DNA of 47,877 bases. It comes from Candidatus Moranbacteria bacterium GW2011_GWF2_35_54. Lineage in GTDB: Bacteria; Patescibacteriota; Minisyncoccia; Moranbacterales; UBA9337. The notes below the pieces were generated by a model. The model had not been told where the DNA came from and made no database searches. It was given only the letters and a program-made list of their open reading frames with translations. Both the position numbers and the translations under genes were made by a program. The DNA lies in assembly GCA_000990945.1 (NCBI GenBank), contig LBQR01000025.1:1-47877 (forward strand), written 5' to 3'. Below, piece after piece: positions 13,389 through 32,602 of this stretch. The stretch's first letter is position 1, and each line of letters opens with the position of its first letter.

Positions 13389-13549
13389 GTCATTCCAGAA
13401 GATAGATTTTCTAAGCGAGTTTGCGAGCTTTTAGAAAATCATCTATGTGGAATCTCAGTATTAAAAAACGAGATCCCACATAAGTAAATTTCTAAAAGCT
13501 CTTCGCCAGCTGGCGAAGAGCTAAGAAATTTTACTTTCTGGGATGACAG
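13389..13549. repeat. Cloverleaf-like nested palindromic element (outer stem plus three hairpins)
   Basis: Outer 13-bp stem TGTCATTCCAGAA/TTCTGGGATGACA (13389-13401 / 13537-13549). Inner hairpins at 13402-13444, 13446-13482 and 13487-13533 (AGCTCTTCGCC-AGCT-GGCGAAGAGCT). Confidence 0.8.
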
Positions 13550-15117: not shown

Positions 15118-15306
15118 TAAAAACTCCTCACTAAGCTGGCAGTATTTTATCTGAAACTTTCTCCACAAAATGGAGAGAGCTTGCCCCGCCTCGGCGGGGG
15201 TTATTTTATTCACTACACTAAATTATTTAGCGCGCCGCACAAAATATTTTTGCGGAGAGTGTTTTTGAAATAAAATACTTTTTACCAGCTTAATGAGGAC
15301 TTTTCT
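15118..15306. repeat. MITE-like element with about 45-bp imperfect terminal inverted repeats
   Basis: Left arm AAACTCCTCACTAAGCTGGCAGTATTTTATCTGAAAC (15121-15157) is the reverse complement of GTTTTTGAAATAAAATACTTTTTACCAGCTTAATGAGGACTTTT (15261-15304). Interior has GC hairpins (GCCCCGCC-TC-GGCGGGG). No ORF. Confidence 0.6.
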
Positions 15307-15344
15307 TAAATTTAATTGGAACTTTATTCTAAAAATCTCCTTTC

Positions 15345-15394
15345 TAAAAAAGAAACTTTATAGAATGGGCAAGCGTTTAAACACACGCTTGCCC
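15345..15394 (-). terminator. Terminator of orphan gene A
   Basis: 10-bp perfect stem GGGCAAGCGT/ACGCTTGCCC (15367-15376 / 15385-15394), then a T-rich tract on the minus strand. Confidence 0.65.
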
Positions 15395-15402
15395 AGTTGA
15401 AC

Positions 15403-15996
15403 TTATAGATAGGTACACATAGAAGCACCTGGCCCCTCGGCGTCTCCGAGAAGATCTTCAAGTCGCAACTCTCTTACGGCATCGAAGATGGTCCTTTCGG
15501 CAATTTCGCCATTGGACCAAATGGCGCGATTTTCATCGCCGTCTATCCAGCCAGCAATAAATGCCGGCTGTTTCATTTTTTCCAGCATCGCTTGGAAGCG
15601 TTGCCGGTTATCCTCTTCGGACACTCCGCTGAAATATTTCTCCAGTGAAAGTCCATTGATTGTATTCTCTGTTCGGGCTTTTTCGTAGCCCGAGAGAGAA
15701 GTGAAAGTAAATACGTTACCGCCCGAGGTAACGTATCGGATAAACGGCGTTACTCCTTCCCCCTTACGCTCCCCGCAAATTTGAGACCACCCCAGGTGGA
15801 GCAGTCCAAACTCCACACTCTCGTAAGCAGACTTTTTCACAAGAACGCTTTCCTTTCTCCACCATCCAGTGGAGTTTTTTGCCGCCTGAGTGAAATGGGC
15901 GGCAGCACGAATTTGGAGTCCCTGTGGCCTCCGCGCACTCCATCTGATTTTTACCTCTTGTTCTGGCCACTGGTCACCCATAATTTTTTCAAACAT
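15403..15996 (-). CDS. Orphan hypothetical protein A (197 aa), GC-rich
   Basis: I prefer the start MFEKIMGDQWPEQ at 15996, with GAGGAGG (16001-16007) 4 nt upstream. The ORF-track start at 16086 would run through the conserved non-coding leader. No family recognised. Confidence 0.6.
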   Translation of the reverse strand: MFEKIMGDQWPEQEVKIRWSARRPQGLQIRAAAHFTQAAKNSTGWWRKESVLVKKSAYESVEFGLLHLGWSQICGERKGEGVTPFIRYVTSGGNVFTFTSLSGYEKARTENTINGLSLEKYFSGVSEEDNRQRFQAMLEKMKQPAFIAGWIDGDENRAIWSNGEIAERTIFDAVRELRLEDLLGDAEGPGASMCTYL

Positions 15997-16039
15997 AACT
16001 CCTCCTCTCTGCCTCATGGACAGAAAAGTAAATTTTTTA

Positions 16040-16103
16040 CTCCACCAAAGACGAAATGTCTGCGTGGAGCGTTTATTTTGAATCACCCATGCAAGACAAT
16101 AAT
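16040..16103 (-). promoter_or_regulatory. Conserved structured 5' leader, copy A
   Basis: 47-nt block shared with 16774-16820 and 17219-17265, plus hairpin CTCCACGCAGAC/GTCTTTGGTGGAG (16040-16069) between the block and the SD. Confidence 0.5.
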
Positions 16104-16258
16104 ATATTTATTGTTTTGCAAAGAGTGATCCAAACAGAGAAACTATGAAATTTTTATCAAAGAACTTTTAACCCCGTCGAATTTATCCCATTGTATAACT
16201 GGGATGACTGGAGAACTACTATGAAACTTCGATTTCAAAAATCAAAATTTCAATAATA

Positions 16259-16296
16259 GTGGCGGAACTAATCTGAACTTTGATGAGTTCTGCCAC
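16259..16296 (-). terminator. Terminator of orphan gene B
   Basis: GTGGCAGAACT/AGTTCCGCCAC 11-bp stem with one mismatch. The loop contains AAAGTTC. Confidence 0.6.
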
Positions 16297-16314
16297 AGTG
16301 AACAAATGGATTTA

Positions 16315-16725
16315 TTAAAAGTTCTTAGTGATCTCGAATTTTGGAAAATTAGAAATCACTAAGGAAAAAAGGGCGGTGTTCTCTGCTGCCATGCAGCAGA
16401 CATTGTCGCTCTCTCGCCATGTTTTTTTTCCAACCAAAGATAACTCATCTCTGGTTGTTACCACTCTCGTATCCCAGTAACCCTGGGTTATGGGATGTCT
16501 GTCTGAACAGACGTGACTAGTAGACTTTCCGTCTAACAGAAAGCCCACCTCTATTACCAGACCGTTTCGCAAAACAGCTTTTTTGGACTCACAGTCAAAA
16601 CTGACCGGAGTCAACTTGTTTCTGGTGTTTTGCCATGATCCAGGATCGAACCATGACTCCTCGTAAAGCTCAATCTCTTTAGATTGAGTATTAATATTTG
16701 CAACAACTCCATAACCTGACGACAT
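16315..16725 (-). CDS. Orphan hypothetical protein B (136 aa), GC-rich
   Basis: GGGAGG (16731-16736) 5 nt before the ATG. No family recognised. Several Cys and Trp residues. Confidence 0.6.
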   Translation of the reverse strand: MSSGYGVVANINTQSKEIELYEESWFDPGSWQNTRNKLTPVSFDCESKKAVLRNGLVIEVGFLLDGKSTSHVCSDRHPITQGYWDTRVVTTRDELSLVGKKTWRESDNVCCMAAENTALFSLVISNFPKFEITKNF

Positions 16726-16753
16726 AATACCCTCCCATTTATTTTGATTTCTT

Positions 16754-16820
16754 GCTCCATCACAAATGATATATCTATGTGGAGCGTTTGATTTGAATCA
16801 CTCCCGTAAAACAACGATAC
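16754..16820 (-). promoter_or_regulatory. Conserved structured 5' leader, copy B
   Basis: Block 16774-16820 plus hairpin GCTCCA(T)CA/TGTGGAGC (16754-16785). Confidence 0.5.
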
Positions 16821-16918
16821 ATTTATTAATTCAAAAAATAAGAAATTACAAAATTTTTATCAAAGAACTTTTACCACTATGAAACTTCAATTTTAAAAAT
16901 CAAAATTTCAATAATAGT

Positions 16919-16951
16919 GGCGAGATTCATTAGAACTTTATAAATCTCGCC
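16919..16951 (-). terminator. Terminator of orphan gene C
   Basis: GGCGAGATT/AATCTCGCC 9-bp stem. The loop contains AAAGTTC. Confidence 0.6.
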
Positions 16952-16959
16952 GGGTGAAC

Positions 16960-17175
16960 TTATCTCCGCCTTAACTTCTCAATGTAAGCAAAGATGATAG
17001 TTATCGGTCCAAACATCGAACCGATTATTCCTCTGAAAAACATAGAAGAAAAAAATGCGATGGCATTGGAATATTCCAATGCGCCACTATTTATTTTTGC
17101 TACCATGTCATACATGGCAGCAGAAATTCCCATAACTGCCCAAATAGCAGCCAGAACGACCAAAAAATCTTGCAT
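16960..17175 (-). CDS. Orphan small membrane protein C (71 aa, two TM segments)
   Basis: I prefer the start MQDFLVVLAAIWAV at 17175, with GGAGG (17181-17185) 5 nt upstream. Hydrophobic throughout. Confidence 0.5.
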   Translation of the reverse strand: MQDFLVVLAAIWAVMGISAAMYDMVAKINSGALEYSNAIAFFSSMFFRGIIGSMFGPITIIFAYIEKLRRR

Positions 17176-17201
17176 GGCAACCTCCATCTTTAGAATGTTT
17201 A

Positions 17202-17265
17202 CTTCACACAAACAAAATTGTCTGCGTGAAGCGTTTATTTTGAATTGCCCATGTGAAACGATAAT
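17202..17265 (-). promoter_or_regulatory. Conserved structured 5' leader, copy C
   Basis: Block 17219-17265 plus 12-bp hairpin CTTCACGCAGAC/GTTTGTGTGAAG (17202-17231). Confidence 0.5.
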
Positions 17266-17578
17266 TTTTTGTTGAAATTACTCATCTCGCATAAAGGCAA
17301 TCCAAAATATTTGGAGAAACTATGAAATTTTTATCAAAGAACTTTGATATCCCTCCGCCTTGCTCAAGATAACATCTCTCTGTTGTCTTAATATCCTGAA
17401 TCAAGTTCAGGATGACAAGAAATTTTATCAAAGAGATTTTTGCATCCGAATAGGTGTTCAGTCTATTAGGTGCAACTGATCTCTTTCCGAAAAAAGGATT
17501 TAAACCCCCTCTCAGTCTCCCCCTTGATTACAAGAGGGAGAGGTTATTTTAATCAGGTGATTGTGATAGTAAAACATC

Positions 17579-17746
17579 TTACTCAATACTTAGAAGTGAT
17601 TCCGAAAGGATATATCGTTCATATATCGACTTTCCCTGTCGCATCCAATCTGATTGAACGATTTTAGACATATAATTCAGATTCCTATCTTCTAGCTTTA
17701 CTCTCTCCATGCGACCAATGCTATAGTTCGCAAAAGTAAACTCCAT
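17579..17746 (-). CDS. Possible small ORF (55 aa)
   Basis: Hand-translated as MEFTFANYSIGRMERVKLEDRNLNYMSKIVQSDWMRQGKSIYERYILSESLLSIE. Below the ORF-track size cutoff. No clear SD. A perfect 14-bp palindrome lies about 50 nt upstream. Confidence 0.2.
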   Translation of the reverse strand: MEFTFANYSIGRMERVKLEDRNLNYMSKIVQSDWMRQGKSIYERYILSESLLSIE

Positions 17747-17794
17747 GAATCTGTTTTACAAAGTCTTAGTTTTAAATGTTCTAGCTAAGATTTT

Positions 17795-17808
17795 ATTGTC
17801 TAGACAAT
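17795..17808. promoter_or_regulatory. Perfect 14-bp palindrome ATTGTCTAGACAAT (candidate operator)
   Basis: Read directly from the sequence. Lies in the divergent region between the small minus-strand ORF and the TrmB-like gene. Confidence 0.3.
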
Positions 17809-17947
17809 ATTTATCTTAACAACATAGTATAGCATGTCTTGATAGATTTGTCAATAGTTTAGTAACAACTTAAGCTTAATCTAGTATATTTTTATATATT
17901 TTAAGCATTTTTTCCTTATTTTATAACTTATTTTTGTCATATTTTTA

Positions 17948-17976
17948 TTGACAAATTGATAATATTTTGCTATAAT
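17948..17976 (+). promoter_or_regulatory. Consensus sigma70-type promoter of the TrmB-like gene
   Basis: TTGACA (17948-17953), a 17-nt spacer, then TATAAT (17971-17976), about 120 nt upstream of the ATG at 18099. Confidence 0.65.
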
Positions 17977-18098: not shown

Positions 18099-18863
18099 AT
18101 GGAAAATATTATACTAAAACAACTCGGCTTAAATAAAAATCAGATACTAATTTATGAATATCTGCTTGCAAATGGCGCGCAAAAAGCTAGTATTATAGCC
18201 AAAAACACCCCCCTGCAAAGAGGGGTGGTTTATAAAACCCTGGACGATCTAATTGAAATGGGGATTATAGAAAAAAATGAAGAAGAAAACGCTATTGCTC
18301 ATTTTACCCCTCTTCATCCCAGTACGCTCAAAAGCCTAGCCGAAAGTAAAATTCGAACGGCTCAAAACACTTTTAATCATTTGGAAAGCGAAATTGGCTC
18401 TTTGGTATCAATGTATAATTTAGCTAACAACAAGCCTGGCATTGAATTTTATGAAGGGATTGATGGAATTAAAAAAGTTTTGGAAGACACGCTAAAAAGC
18501 AAGACGGAAATTTGCTTATTCCTTAATAGAGATGCTTTGCAAAAAGAAGAGATGTTTCATGAAATAAATGAAAAGTATAAAGTTAGAAGAGAAAGGGCCG
18601 GAGTCAAGAAAAAAATCATTCGTGCTGGAGCTAAATCACTAGGTGACGAAGAGCAAAAAAAGGAATACCAAGAGATTACCGAGATCCGTTATTTTGAAAA
18701 AAATATCTCACCTTTCAAGTCGTCCATTCAGATTTATGACAATAAGATATCCTATCAAATTATTGAAAATGGCCAGGTCGTTTCTATTATTATAGAAGAT
18801 CGCAATATTTATGAAATGAACAAGGCTTGGTTTGAGTATATGTGGGAAAATAGTGAGAGATAG
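18099..18863 (+). CDS. TrmB-family transcriptional regulator
   Basis: N-terminal winged-helix LGLNKNQILIYEYLLANGAQKASIIAKNTPLQRGVVYKTLDDLIEMGII plus a C-terminal TrmB-like domain. 254 aa. Confidence 0.7.
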   Translation: MENIILKQLGLNKNQILIYEYLLANGAQKASIIAKNTPLQRGVVYKTLDDLIEMGIIEKNEEENAIAHFTPLHPSTLKSLAESKIRTAQNTFNHLESEIGSLVSMYNLANNKPGIEFYEGIDGIKKVLEDTLKSKTEICLFLNRDALQKEEMFHEINEKYKVRRERAGVKKKIIRAGAKSLGDEEQKKEYQEITEIRYFEKNISPFKSSIQIYDNKISYQIIENGQVVSIIIEDRNIYEMNKAWFEYMWENSER

Positions 18864-29752: not shown

Positions 29753-31821
29753 TTATTTCTTTGCATCTTTCATGGAGAGATTTATCCTGCCCATTTTATC
29801 AATTTCTTTAACTTTTACCATCACCATATCTCCTACTTTAACCACATCATCAACTTTATTGACACGTTGCTCTGATAGCTCTGAAATATGAATTAATCCA
29901 TCTTGACCTGGTAACAATTGAGCAAAAGCTCCAAAATCCATTATTTTAACTACTTTAGCATTAAAAATTTCTCCAGCCTTTACTTCTCGGGTAAGATTTT
30001 CCACCCATTCCCTAGCTTTATCGGCAGAAACTTGATCTGGAGAAGTGATGAAAACTAGTCCGCTGTCTTCTATGTCAATTTGCACTCCAGTTTCGTCAAT
30101 AATTTCATTGATAACTTTTCCACCGGGTCCGATTACTGAACGAATTTTATCTGGGTTGATTTGAAGGGTAATAATTCTCGGTGCGTAAGGAGACATTTCT
30201 TTTCTCGGTTCAGCTATTACCTTGAGCATTTCTCCCATTATAAACATCCGACTTTCTTTAGATTGAGTCAAAACATTTTTTAACATTTCAATTGTTACAC
30301 CATCTACTTTTACATCCATTTGTAACGCAGTTATGCCCTTTTCTGTTCCAGCTGCTTTAAAATCCATATCCCCGTAATGATCTTCCATTCCTTGAATATC
30401 ACTTAGAACTTTAAATTCATTATCATTTTTGCCCACAATTATTCCCATCGCAATTCCACTCACCGGTCTTTTTATCGGTACCCCAGCATCCATAAGAGAT
30501 AATGTTGAGATTCAAGCACTTCGGAAACCAAAAGCATCGTATAGGGAAATTCTTCTTTAGATGGAAGAACGGGAATTAAAGCTTTTTCAGCTAGCGCCCC
30601 ATGTCCAATTTCTCTTCGGCCCGGTCCGCGCATAAACCTAACTTCTCCCACAGAAAAAGGAGGGAAATTATAATGATGAATATATCTCTTTTTCATATCC
30701 ACCTCCATAGTATCAATTATTTGTTCGTCTCCTGGAGATCCTAAGGTTGTCACAGTCAAAGCTTGAGTTTCACCCCTAGTAAAAAGTCCAGTCCCATGAG
30801 TTCTTGGTAAAATCCCTGTTTGAATAGTAATTTTTCTAACTTCTTTAAGACCTCTACCGTCGGGGCGTTTATCGCTCTCGATAATATTTTTATGCACCAT
30901 TTCATCGCAAACTTCATCCAATATAAGATTGGCAATATCTTTTCTTTTATCAAAATCTTCGGGATGATTTTCTTTAATATATTCTAACACTTCATCTTTT
31001 ATTTCGCCCACGGCTTTTTCCATTTCCTTCTTTTCTTTTATGTACAGAGCTTGCTCAAGTTTTTCAGTTGCAAAAAGATCTTTAATCTTCTTTTCAAACT
31101 CGGCATCTCCCTGAAGAAGAGCTGGCTCGGATTTTTCTTTGCCCGACTCTTTTTGAATATCTTTTATAAATTTAGCTATTTTAGACAAAGCGTTTTGTCC
31201 GAATTCAAAAGCTTCTAGAATGTCTTCTTCTGGAATTTCCTTAGCGGCCGCCTCTATCATATTGGTCTTATCTTCAGTTCCAGCAATTACCAAATTTAAA
31301 TCCCCATCCTTAAGATCCCCATTAATTGGATTGAGCACTAACTCACCATTAATCTTTCCTACCTTGACTGCTCCAATTGGACCATTCCAAGGAACATTGG
31401 AAATAGAAAGCGCTGCTGAAGCTGCAATAATAGAAACTATATCCGGATCATTTTCCCCATCAATAGAGAGAACTGTTATTATAACTTGCACCTCATTTCT
31501 CATTCGACCATTAAATAAAGGCCTGATTGATCTATCAATCATTCTTCCTGTCAAAACAGCATCGTCAGAAGGACGTCCTTCTCTTTTAATAAATCGGGAT
31601 CCCTTTATTTTTCCCGCAGCATAATAGCGCTCTTCATAATCCACCATCAAAGGGAAATATCCCATATTGCTAGCTGCACCAGTTTTCATAACCGCTGTAG
31701 CCAGAACTACTGTGTCTCCATAGCTAACTTTTACAGCTCCGCTAGCTTGTTTAGCTAAAACTCCGGTTTCTATGCGAAGTTCTCGACCTCCAATTTGGAG
31801 AGTCCATTTTTTCTCTTCCAT
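29753..31821 (-). CDS. pnp: Polyribonucleotide nucleotidyltransferase (PNPase), split into two ORFs by a short deletion/frameshift
   Basis: 30472..31821 encodes RNase PH domain 1 and most of domain 2. 29753..30493 encodes [17 protein letters not shown]..., KH and S1 domains. At the junction the motif NGSSSMA.VCG expected between VLES and [10 protein letters not shown] is absent and the frame shifts. Confidence 0.9.
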
Positions 31822-32197
31822 ATTTTATTTATGATTTTGAAAGAATCTTGAAACAAGGAATTTAAAATAATTTTAAACTTACACGATTAAATTCATATTC
31901 GAGTTATTAGAACGTAATTGGAGTATTAGAGTCGCTATTGAAAATATAAATGCGACTCGAATAATTCGAATAAGCACACAAATAACGCTAATGGATAAAA
32001 TGCGTAGATTATGTAAAATTATTACAAATTTCAGGTTTCAAGTGTAAGTTTCTTCCAAAATCAAATTTATTAATTACTAATTAACTTCTTGTACTATAGT
32101 TCAAATTTGTACATTTGTCAAAAAATAAAAACACATTTTTTAGGTGCGCTCTTATACAAAAAAAATATTCAATTTAATCATCTTTTCCTGTATTAAG

Positions 32198-32271
32198 CGG
32201 GAGCGACCGGACTCGAACCGGCGACCTATTGCGTGACAGGCAATCGCTCTAACCAGCTGAGCTACGCCCCC
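32198..32271 (-). tRNA. tRNA-Asp (GTC)
   Basis: Hand-folded: acceptor GGGGGCG/CGCTCCC, D arm GCTC..GAGC, anticodon arm ATTGC-CTGTCAC-GCAAT, T arm GCCGG-TTCGAGT-CCGGT. CCA not encoded. Confidence 0.85.
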
Positions 32272-32355
32272 GTTTCATGTATCATACAACATGAAGCATA
32301 CAGCAAATTAAAAAGATTTGTTCTATGTTTCATGCTACATGTTTATATATTTTTG

Positions 32356-32429
32356 TACCAGGAGAGAGATTCGAACTCTCGACCTCAGGCTTATGAGTCC
32401 TGCGCTCTAACCAACTGAGCTATCCTGGC
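32356..32429 (-). tRNA. tRNA with CAT anticodon (elongator Met or lysidine-modified Ile2)
   Basis: GCCAGGATAGCTCAGTTGGTTAGAGCGCAGGACTCATAAGCCTGAGGTCGAGAGTTCGAATCTCTCTCCTGGTA. Cloverleaf folds, T loop TTCGAAT, anticodon loop CTCATAA. Confidence 0.8.
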
Positions 32430-32528
32430 ATTTTAGCATTTAGTATAAAGTATTTTGAATTTAGTATTCAAAAAAACTTGATACAAAATACAAAATACTT
32501 AATACCAGATACTCCTGCTCATTACTTG

Positions 32529-32602
32529 TTGCGGGGGCCGGATTCGAACCGGCGACCTCCTGGTTATGAGCCAGACGAGCTGCCAGACTGCTCTACCCCG
32601 CG
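32529..32602 (-). tRNA. Initiator tRNA-fMet (CAT)
   Basis: CGCGGGGTAGAGCAGTCTGGCAGCTCGTCTGGCTCATAACCAGGAGGTCGCCGGTTCGAATCCGGCCCCCGCAA. Has the C1-A72 mismatch and is close in sequence to the E. coli initiator tRNA as I recall it. Confidence 0.85.

Follow-up and report, generated by a model that had tools for sequence, protein, structure and literature searches.

The results of this analysis point to a variable island in a 47,877-nt stretch, hereafter called the window, of Candidatus Moranbacteria bacterium GW2011_GWF2_35_54 (GenBank assembly GCA_000990945.1, contig LBQR01000025.1, positions 1 to 47,877). According to this reading, to which we assign a probability of roughly 0.55, a chromosome of Moranbacteria type, that is, of the candidate phyla radiation (CPR), holds a lineage-specific array of tandem, individually packaged and co-regulated units whose coding content (cargo) is exchangeable. 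The array at 15345-17445 consists of three minus-strand tandem open reading frames (ORFs), named C, B and A in the order in which they are read, each with a good Shine-Dalgarno site. It lies between a flippase gene on one side and a divergently transcribed gene for a TrmB-family regulator on the other. Each gene stands in a repeated non-coding frame (Table 1), and related lineages carry other genes in the same frames.

It is hypothesised that the array works as described below. Each unit would be an unrelated accessory ORF with its own Shine-Dalgarno site set in common 5' and 3' frames, and a box at the head of the unit would drive a 5' untranslated region (UTR) of roughly 120-165 nt that folds into hairpins P1 and P2, and sometimes P3. 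The UUUCUCC at the 5' end of this UTR would pair with the Shine-Dalgarno site so that translation is closed by default, and one common signal would open it; the common frames would thus place a changing gene set under a single transcriptional and post-transcriptional control. The frames, which all have the same orientation, would be kept alike by gene conversion, and would in turn supply the homology through which cargo could be swapped or reshuffled, both among the units and among related genomes, with no need for a dedicated integrase.

The genomes of CPR bacteria are tiny and hold few recognisable mobile elements, and to our knowledge hardly any gene regulation has been characterised in them. 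The locus would offer a small CPR genome a compact way to hold a small, changing set of accessory genes, some of them compositionally foreign. If the reading is true, it would provide a new cis-regulatory RNA architecture in Patescibacteria, an example of concerted evolution of non-coding expression frames and a case in which cassettes turn over with no integron integrase. What makes it chiefly interesting is its occurrence in CPR bacteria, the unusual completeness of the expression frame and, next to the array, an uncharacterised structured RNA beside a TrmB-family regulator, while its reach is limited to a narrow clade.

Repeated frames around three genes

A repeat search of the window returned an 81-nt family (16032-16112, 16747-16827 and 17194-17274; 73-75% identity), a 67-nt pair (16215-16281 and 16873-16939; 87% identity) made up of a 45-nt block and a hairpin, and a 32-nt box family (16137-16168, 16840-16871 and 17314-17345; 88-100% identity). 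The blocks that an initial annotation, made by reading the letters alone, had listed were recovered at their positions, its 47-nt block with flanks being the 81-nt family; the two hairpins it had described (16259-16296 and 16919-16951) and a GGAGG-type site before each ATG are present as well. The 21-mer core of the box, AAAGTTCTTTGATAAAAATTT, occurs exactly three times against 0.07 copies expected by chance, and the degenerate 20-mer ATTCAAAWYAAACGCTYCAC three times against 0.04; all these copies lie in the array, and the window holds no other. The placement of the modules relative to the stop and start codons is identical in all eight units of the three lineages in which the module is known.

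Table 1. Positions of the array elements and of the flank upstream of them in the window.
Feature	Position	Strand	Remarks
TrmB-family winged-helix regulator gene	18099..18863	+	PF01978, E = 2.9e-11; conserved neighbour in all relatives examined
Predicted sigma-70 promoter of the TrmB-like gene	17948-17976	+	12/12 consensus matches; divergent from the promoter at 17826..17854
Predicted near-consensus sigma-70 promoter	17826..17854	-	TTGACA-N17-TATACT; 11/12 consensus matches; points into the locus
Conserved structured RNA candidate	17425..17825	-	ca. 400 nt, between promoter and first cassette
Box of unit C	17314..17347	-	AAAGTTCTTTGATAAAAATTTCATAGTTTCTCC; promoter/operator-like; 3' end UUUCUCC is an anti-Shine-Dalgarno sequence
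Leader of unit C	17196..17309	-	P1 type GGATTGCC/GGCAATTC, linker AAUAAACG, P2 CUUCAC/GUGAAG; z = -8.4; covariance model 130 bits
Cargo C with Shine-Dalgarno site	16960..17185	-	ORF 16960-17175, 71 aa; GGAGG at 17181-17185
3' module after C	16873..16959	-	GTTCAC directly after stop; stem-loop 16919-16951 (loop contains AAAGUUCU); 45-nt block 16876-16920
Box of unit B	16841..16872	-	From repeat family and motif counts
Leader of unit B	16749..16855	-	Shortened P1, then P2; most diverged copy; z = -3.1; covariance model 66.5 bits
Cargo B with Shine-Dalgarno site	16315..16736	-	ORF 16315-16725, 136 aa, soluble orphan; GGGAGGG at 16730-16736
3' module after B	16215..16308	-	GTTCAC; stem-loop 16259-16296 (loop AAAGUUCA); 45-nt block 16218-16262
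Box of unit A	16137..16168	-	Copy-specific spacer of ca. 45 nt (16169-16214) between box and 3' module of B
Leader of unit A	16034..16137	-	Second-type P1 GGATCAC/GTGATTC, P2 CUCCAC/GUGGAG; z = -7.5; covariance model 107 bits
Cargo A with Shine-Dalgarno site	15403..16005	-	ORF 15403-15996, 197 aa, small uncharacterised family; GGAGG at 16001-16005
Array end after A	15367..15402	-	GTTCAA directly after stop; different stem-loop GGGCAAGCG..CGCTTGCCC, no AAAGUUCW loop

The box has the general form GTTCTTTGA..TTTCATAG..TTTCTCC over ca. 33 nt and, judged from its sequence, is most likely a promoter combined with an operator. Five aligned 3' modules show one order of elements: the stop codon, (G/A)TTCA(C/A) within 0-17 nt, a stem-loop, ..ATTGAAATTTT..TTTCATAGT(A/G)G, a spacer of 0-45 nt and the next box. 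The 45-nt block after C is an inverted repeat, ..TATTATTGAAATTTT..TTTCATAGT. In the stem-loop, the base GGCG..CGCC and the loop (A/T)AGTTC(A/T) are conserved and the distal stem varies; the loops of the two window copies, AAAGTTCA (16259-16296) and AAAGTTCT (16919-16951), have the common form AAAGUUCW. That the loop is constant while the stem varies suggests that a protein or an RNA recognises it, and the 3' frame would most likely be a terminator or an RNA-stability element with a recognition loop. No box follows the array end behind A.

Upstream of each gene lies a leader of 105-115 nt with the two hairpins P1 and P2, for which the folding z-scores against shuffled controls were -7.5 (A), -3.1 (B) and -8.4 (C). 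The sense strand of the leader is 9-30 kcal/mol more stable than the antisense strand in 8 of the 8 units from three lineages, since the helices hold many G-U pairs, and this asymmetry speaks for a structure of RNA and not of DNA. When seven leaders were aligned over the outer and inner parts of P1 and over P2, 95.5% of the alignment cells paired, compared with 31-53% when the 3' partners were slid, and six pairs had changed on both sides. P1 occurs in two fully compensated versions, GGAUUGCC/GGCAAUUC (UUGCC/GGCAA; type 1) and GGAUCAC/GUGAUUC (UCAC/GUGA; type 2), while P2 varies among A-U, G-C and G-U at one position and among U-A, C-G and U-G at another. The covariance-model match of unit B starts within the box of that unit (16841-16872). 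A conserved four-codon mini-ORF (MRDx) seen in type-1 P1 was rejected as coincidental; it is absent from type 2, and its variable codon follows the covariation of the stem.

A further helix, P0, in which the UUUCUCC of the box pairs with the Shine-Dalgarno region and closes the leader, appears in the minimum free energy fold of seven of the eight units. Unit Y of a related lineage (L015) has an unrelated leader sequence, yet it retains the box along with two internal hairpins and a P0 that is perfect over 10 bp (UUUCUCCUAU/AUAGGAGAAA). In unit A, the predicted fold sequesters the Shine-Dalgarno site in an additional local hairpin, P3 (ca. 16001-16028), instead of in P0. These folds suggest that the leader may hold translation closed until some signal opens it.

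Neither exact nor degenerate motif searches found a further copy of the module in the window or in additional flanks, and a covariance model of P1-P2 that gave 66-130 bits on the array copies did not exceed 23 bits in the rest of the window or in 13 further loci. Exact-box scans of GTDB species-representative genomes returned 60 matches, nearly all of them single chance matches, the real ones being the same locus in L032/L037 and L045; of nine matches in the JGI metagenome collection one (L094) was real, and two viral scans, which covered IMG/VR, yielded chance matches only. On the collections searched, the module is thus specific to this locus and to one clade. The inter-cassette pattern ATTGAAATTTT..TTTCATAGT was abandoned as a search probe because it was unspecific, with 13 chance viral matches.

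Two side observations came from these searches. The best leader match outside the array (23 bits, rough E = 0.006) is a hairpin-rich region at 13428-13527 (+), upstream of the flippase gene; its TTTTACTTTCTGGGATGACAGAGG is similar to the P3 segment of unit A, probably by chance. A 371-kb viral contig (IMGVR_UViG_2706795115_000001, L084) carries at least ten copies of a 39-nt motif, ATTGAAAYTTTNAG....AACATA...TTCATAKT, scattered over 10 kb; this motif looks like a repeated signal, promoter or intergenic, of some very large virus and has no connection with the array.

Cargo genes and their turnover between lineages

A, B and C show no similarity to one another (blastp E > 1) and no match in Pfam, NCBIfam, PHROGs or PADLOC, as the initial annotation had surmised in calling them unrelated orphans; X, Y and two orphans of the distant locus L103, introduced below, had no match in NCBIfam or PHROGs. 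A search of PDB sequences with a profile of the A family, with X and with B was equally negative. C looks like a small two-helix membrane protein by its sequence, and its 90%-identity cluster has three members, none of them named. Among 5.8 billion proteins, B had no homologue but itself and A had one other 90%-identity cluster (P0002, 79% identity). AlphaFold2 models of A (mean confidence score, pLDDT, 33 from a two-sequence alignment) and B (40 from the single sequence) were unusable. Neither type VI secretion system (T6SS) immunity genes nor other immunity genes showed homology with the cargo in Pfam, NCBIfam, PADLOC, PHROG or PDB, not every protein having been run against every library, so that the suggestion of immunity- or effector-type orphans found no support in any library searched.

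The GC content is 49.5% in A (49.5% also at third codon positions, GC3), 42.3% in B and 38.4% in C, compared with 31-40% in host genes (GC3 28-35%) and 34.6% over the window. The description of all three genes as GC-rich therefore holds strongly for A, moderately for B and marginally at best for C. A appears to have been acquired horizontally, and B probably was too. The ratio of nonsynonymous to synonymous substitution rates was 0.10 between A and its L015 orthologue and 0.27 for X; A and X are therefore real genes under purifying selection.

A HMMER scan of 1.84 billion representative proteins detected six distant relatives of A (P0124-P0129; E = 4e-33 to 2e-11), none with similarity to Pfam or PDB entries. 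All six lie on short contigs, and on every contig examined the gene is GC-rich (54-62%) within AT-rich DNA (33-48%). On the contigs L106, L107/L108 and L110, hairpin-rich non-coding DNA of ca. 280-650 nt precedes the homologue, and L109 has only ca. 80 nt of upstream sequence. The neighbours include HicAB and an IS3 transposase (L110) and a downstream ParA-like gene (L109). Upstream of the gene, L108 and L110 share homologous sequence, which contains GTTCTTTGAAT in L108 and GTTCTTTTAAA in L110, each followed by GGTAGA(G/A)GAAA; these recall the box, the link to the box of the window being 9-10 nt only. These relatives place A in an accessory, horizontally moving gene pool and hint that A may travel with a long leader.

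The locus was found by exact-protein look-up in the groundwater assemblies GCA_000990515.1 and GCA_000990885.1 and in several ENA, JGI and Logan assemblies. All 14 contigs, from several samples of one population, hold the identical trio C, B and A; the full-span contigs are ca. 99% identical to the window region, the difference from 100% being due to one 32-nt indel, and each shorter fragment matches its portion of the region at 100%. The TrmB homologues and the related contigs are labelled Candidatus Moranbacteria or Moraniibacteriota.

The first related lineage (L105 and L015, from the same sample) has an array of X (241 aa), Y (126 aa) and A' (P0002, on L015) in place of the C, B and A of the window. 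It keeps the promoter, the upstream RNA region, both flanks and the modules, and its TrmB-like protein is 59% identical to that of the window. A/A' (79% amino-acid identity) is the only cargo that the two have in common. A third lineage comprises ACD_7C/AMFJ01002601, MGOW01000050 and the Moraniibacteriota UBA9337 contig DOKP01000047 (L099-L102, L037, L045 and L094); its TrmB-like protein is ca. 61% identical to that of the window and 81% to that of the L015 lineage. In this ACD_7C lineage, X'' (56-57% identical to X) is followed by a second box and leader, a 20-codon ORF and a sequence resembling an insertion sequence (IS), at which four independent assemblies break (L100-L102, first ca. 200-290 nt, reverse strand), suggesting that an insertion sequence disrupted the cargo of the second slot.

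The limits of turnover are sharp. Similarity between lineages in BLAST comparisons runs through the flank, the box, P1 and P2, breaks off ca. 20 nt short of the ATG and returns at the stop codon or no more than 7 nt from it; at C it ends at 17198 and restarts at 16958, after B it restarts at 16308, and the similarity of the right flank to L015 restarts at 15261. Since A and A' are 79% identical where the TrmB-like proteins are 59% identical, and X and X'' 57% where these are 81%, cargo divergence is decoupled from flank divergence in these comparisons. Besides, the P1 in front of gene A is of type 2 in the window and of type 1 in L015, and the part of the leader adjoining the Shine-Dalgarno site is genome-specific, being most alike between units of one genome. 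This reassortment of leader and cargo, together with the genome-specific leader part, therefore argues for concerted evolution and recombination between units. The view of a constant frame with variable cargo is thus borne out by X, Y and A' in one lineage and by X'' and the disrupted unit in another. The suggestion of strain-level variability was not, the 14 contigs of one population sharing the three genes and the variation lying between species-level lineages.

Two more distant loci are related to the array by their flank. L103, a TrmB-linked locus without the module, has two other orphan genes directly behind the promoter. In L104 (TrmB 65% identical), the upstream RNA is kept and there are ca. 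450 nt of AT-rich DNA, a box-like GTTCTTTGAAACTAAACTAAGTAATTTCC (ca. 665-695, -) and a ribonucleotide-reductase-like gene (1-438, -), from which it follows that the box motif can precede a housekeeping-type gene.

Other explanations and known systems

Several observations weigh against the island reading. A consensus scan gave a single weak sigma-70 match across the three boxes and did not call the inter-cassette hairpins intrinsic terminators, because their loops are long and their T-tails interrupted; the elements that the initial annotation had proposed as strong terminators and promoter-like signals are present, and their roles may be those proposed. The array is invariant within the sampled population. 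The P1-P2 structure was derived from the same related sequences on which it was scored, so that the pairing counts are supportive and not conclusive, and the covariation counts are small, as the module is known in three lineages only, with seven or eight related leader copies. P0 is modestly supported, since any UUUCUCC 5' of a GGAGG is predicted to pair with it. The search for copies in the source strain covered the window and 10-kb flanks, the genome itself not having been returned by the collection scans. Finally, on the present data homologous recombination cannot be told apart from a site-specific mechanism at GTTCA/AAAGTTC.

One unlikely alternative is a decayed integrated mobile element, such as a CPR prophage or plasmid, whose moron-like genes would use the frame as the standard expression signal of the element. 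The composition of the cargo is foreign, and homologues of A occur near IS3, HicAB and ParA genes, always as GC-rich genes in AT-rich DNA with long structured upstream regions, two of which begin with the box-like GTTCTTTGA or GTTCTTTTA; a common 9-10-mer is, however, weak evidence. Against a mobile origin, the window has housekeeping neighbours and encodes no phage, plasmid, integrase or transposase protein, the array occupies the same TrmB-adjoining position in lineages whose TrmB-like proteins are only 58-62% identical, and tblastn searches of A against phage and plasmid records and of X against phage records were empty. What defines phage morons is a promoter and a terminator belonging to each, together with a deviant GC content (Cumby, Davidson & Maxwell 2012, PMC3594210). 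The GC contents of A and B deviate accordingly from that of the window and that of C marginally, and the architecture of the array is consistent with separate promoters and terminators, the consensus scan lending no support to canonical signals. Unlike morons, each of which brings its own signals, the units have one common frame, and they stand in tandem at a conserved chromosomal site among housekeeping genes with no PHROG match and not in a prophage.

About as improbable is the proposal that the leader acts as a ligand-sensing riboswitch or RNA thermometer with the array as its regulon, which would be a narrower form of the regulatory step hypothesised above. A conserved multi-helix leader with covariation, a Shine-Dalgarno site in the closing helix and A-rich joining regions (AAUAAACG) would fit such a sensor. 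However, searches of the window and the relatives with Rfam 15 at gathering and permissive thresholds returned only tRNAs and chance microRNA-type hits, with no relevant match to a known cis-regulatory RNA or riboswitch at E <= 10 for the window region or E <= 1 for the relatives. The leader has few conserved unpaired nucleotides for a binding pocket, its P1 comes in two versions that differ internally, no pathway is common to the cargo genes and the element is restricted to one narrow clade.

Local tandem duplication, in which one ancestral gene would have been triplicated together with its promoter and leader and its coding copies would have diverged past recognition, is very unlikely. The non-coding frames are clearly paralogous within the array, and tandem duplication is the simplest way to copy them. 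The cargo, however, differs in length (71, 136, 197, 241 and 126 aa), in type (membrane or soluble) and in GC content (37-50%), A has a distant family of its own without similarity to B, C, X or Y, and non-coding DNA of 73-100% identity beside coding DNA without detectable similarity is the reverse of what divergence after duplication leaves. Besides, other genes occupy the same slots in relatives, which also removes the possibility, raised in the initial annotation, that the genes are syntenic and invariant paralogues.

A degenerate integron or a cluster of attC sites lacking an integron integrase (CALIN) is even slightly less credible. The inter-cassette repeats would then be attC-type sites at which a tyrosine recombinase encoded elsewhere moves the cassettes. 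Unrelated and mostly orphan ORFs between conserved, imperfectly palindromic repeats do recall sedentary chromosomal integrons, as do hairpins with varying stems and conserved loop and base and the sharp cargo boundaries adjoining a GTTCA motif. CALINs without a nearby integrase are also common, and integron arrays, like the present one, have cargo of varying composition that differs between relatives. By definition, though, a CALIN needs at least two attC sites with R''/R' core sites 50-150 nt apart, and integron cassettes are expressed from a common Pc promoter and rarely have promoters of their own (Cury et al. 2016, PMC4889954). No intI gene was found, the window and the 10-kb flanks of relatives being free of integrases, and a regular-expression scan of all four inter-cassette and boundary regions detected no R'' (RYYYAAC) and R' (GTTRRRY) pair on either strand. 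The spacers of 230-320 nt instead contain a promoter-like box and a G-U-rich 5' UTR structure specific to the mRNA strand, and the conserved frame, unlike attC, reaches to ca. 20 nt before each ATG; each unit appears to be self-expressed and not dependent on a single Pc promoter.

The least probable alternative, a dispersed miniature repeat of the type of miniature inverted-repeat transposable elements, Correia, BOX or REP lying between genes without a functional link, shares with the array separable blocks, inverted repeats and stable hairpins and can carry promoters (PMC3575422), but it is contradicted by the constant position of the frame relative to stop and start codons in all eight units, by the lack of further copies in the window and flanks (23 bits at best against 66-130 bits) and by collection-wide exact scans that give only this locus in related Moranbacteria; the generic dispersed repeat that the initial annotation had considered is therefore not what the blocks are.

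Among the known systems that the variable island resembles are putative mobile promoters (PMPs), in which similar upstream DNA precedes non-homologous genes; a part in rewiring and post-transcriptional control has been suggested for them (Matus-Garcia, Nijveen & van Passel 2012, PMC3575422). As in the array, highly similar upstream non-coding DNA stands before unrelated genes of one genome, no known mobile element is involved and most families lack an Rfam match. PMPs are recognised by at least 80% identity over at least 50 nt between -150 and -50 of genes with non-paralogous coding sequences; in the array the coding sequences are non-homologous, and the upstream identities are 88-100% over 32 nt and 73-75% over 81 nt, with 87% for the 67-nt pair farther upstream. 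Unlike PMPs, the array reuses a whole frame (box, structured 5' UTR to ca. 20 nt before the ATG and matching 3' module), all its copies lie in one tandem array and its cargo is exchanged between related genomes. The rAID-1 clusters of Bacteroidales are defined by a 5' XerD-family tyrosine recombinase and homology with T6SS immunity genes (Ross et al., bioRxiv 10.1101/471110). The array likewise has at least two co-directional genes, skewed GC and repetitive intergenic sequences, but it has no recombinase, its head is formed by the TrmB-family regulator on the opposite strand, its cargo is GC-richer than the host, which is opposite to the skew of rAID-1, and it has a structured 5' UTR, none being described for rAID-1. 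The array thus lies outside the definitions of integrons and CALINs, rAID-1 clusters and phage morons while partly resembling each, and it is a variant of promoter/UTR reuse, morons and integron-like arrays and not a new category.

Upstream RNA, promoters and neighbouring genes

The region of ca. 400 nt between the upstream promoter and the first cassette is itself a candidate for a conserved structured RNA. An alignment of four lineages (the window, L032/L101, L105 with L015, and L104) gave 97 pairs in RNAalifold, 23 of them with compensatory changes, including a long-range helix (GAUUGGAUG/CAUCACAAUC) and a hairpin whose GAACG loop is conserved. The candidate closes with a hairpin at 17430-17486, and in the window lineage a terminator-like hairpin with a T-run lies at ca. 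17491-17545. No Rfam family matched 17425-17825, and the frame of a 55-aa ORF inside it (17579-17746) is not conserved in relatives. The sequence at 17419-17441 that the initial annotation had taken for a degenerate fourth copy of the box is instead the 3' strand (17420-17440) of the hairpin at 17430-17486. Every other assembly of this strain that spans the region has 32 nt (TATAATTAAGCGAAACACTTCCAAGAAAAGAC) between 17566 and 17565 (-) that the window lacks; this deletion takes out a AACACTTCCA motif that is universally conserved, together with one strand of a hairpin predicted in the upstream RNA.

A bolder extension, which we consider speculative and improbable, is that the frames are the adaptor of an integrase-independent platform for gene capture and exchange in CPR bacteria, a functional analogue of integrons in which any ORF placed between the leader and the 3' stem-loop, whose conserved GTTCA/AAAGUUCW motifs would serve for recognition, would become expressible, co-regulated and exchangeable, with the 400-nt RNA and the TrmB-like protein possibly acting as controllers in trans. 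On such a platform, UGAAC in a conserved loop of one RNA hairpin might, for instance, contact the GUUCA motifs; alternatively, the RNA might undo the pairing of the anti-Shine-Dalgarno sequence.

The promoters at 17826..17854 and 17948-17976 are near-perfect sigma-70 promoters, so the statement that the genome otherwise lacks such signals did not hold. They resemble each other (TATTGACAAAT..GCTATAMT) and together form a 32-nt imperfect inverted repeat. The array-facing promoter is kept in L032, L104, L105 and L103, the divergent arrangement even in L103, which has no module. From its position, the TrmB-like protein may be considered a candidate regulator of the array. Of the four copies of the motif TTGATARWWWTTT in the window, three lie in boxes and one in the spacer of the TrmB promoter; as a TrmB operator the motif was set aside as a lead only, the promoter copy not being conserved in the ACD_7C lineage. 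A 19-nt inverted repeat around the array (15331-15349 and 17423-17441) was also rejected as terminal inverted repeats, being absent from L015 and one of eight pairs at chance level.

The window is ordinary chromosome that encodes PriA, Fpg, RtcB, thymidylate kinase (Tmk), a Wzx-like flippase and PMT glycosyltransferases, as well as polynucleotide phosphorylase (PNPase), NusA, trigger factor, ClpP, RuvB, a penicillin-binding protein and type IV pilus genes. Pfam scans of its ORFs found no integrase, transposase, phage or plasmid genes, and no Phage_integrase or rve domain was present in these ORFs or in the precomputed Pfam hits for the 10-kb flanks of relatives. The PNPase gene appears split into two ORFs that overlap by ca. 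22 nt (29753-31821, -): the ORF at 30472-31821 has two RNase_PH domains and a PNPase domain, and that at 29753-30493 has RNase_PH_C, KH and S1 domains. The cause could be a frameshift or a sequencing error, or the gene may truly be split. A cluster of three tRNA genes (Asp-GTC, Met-CAT and Met-CAT) lies at 32197-32602 (-).

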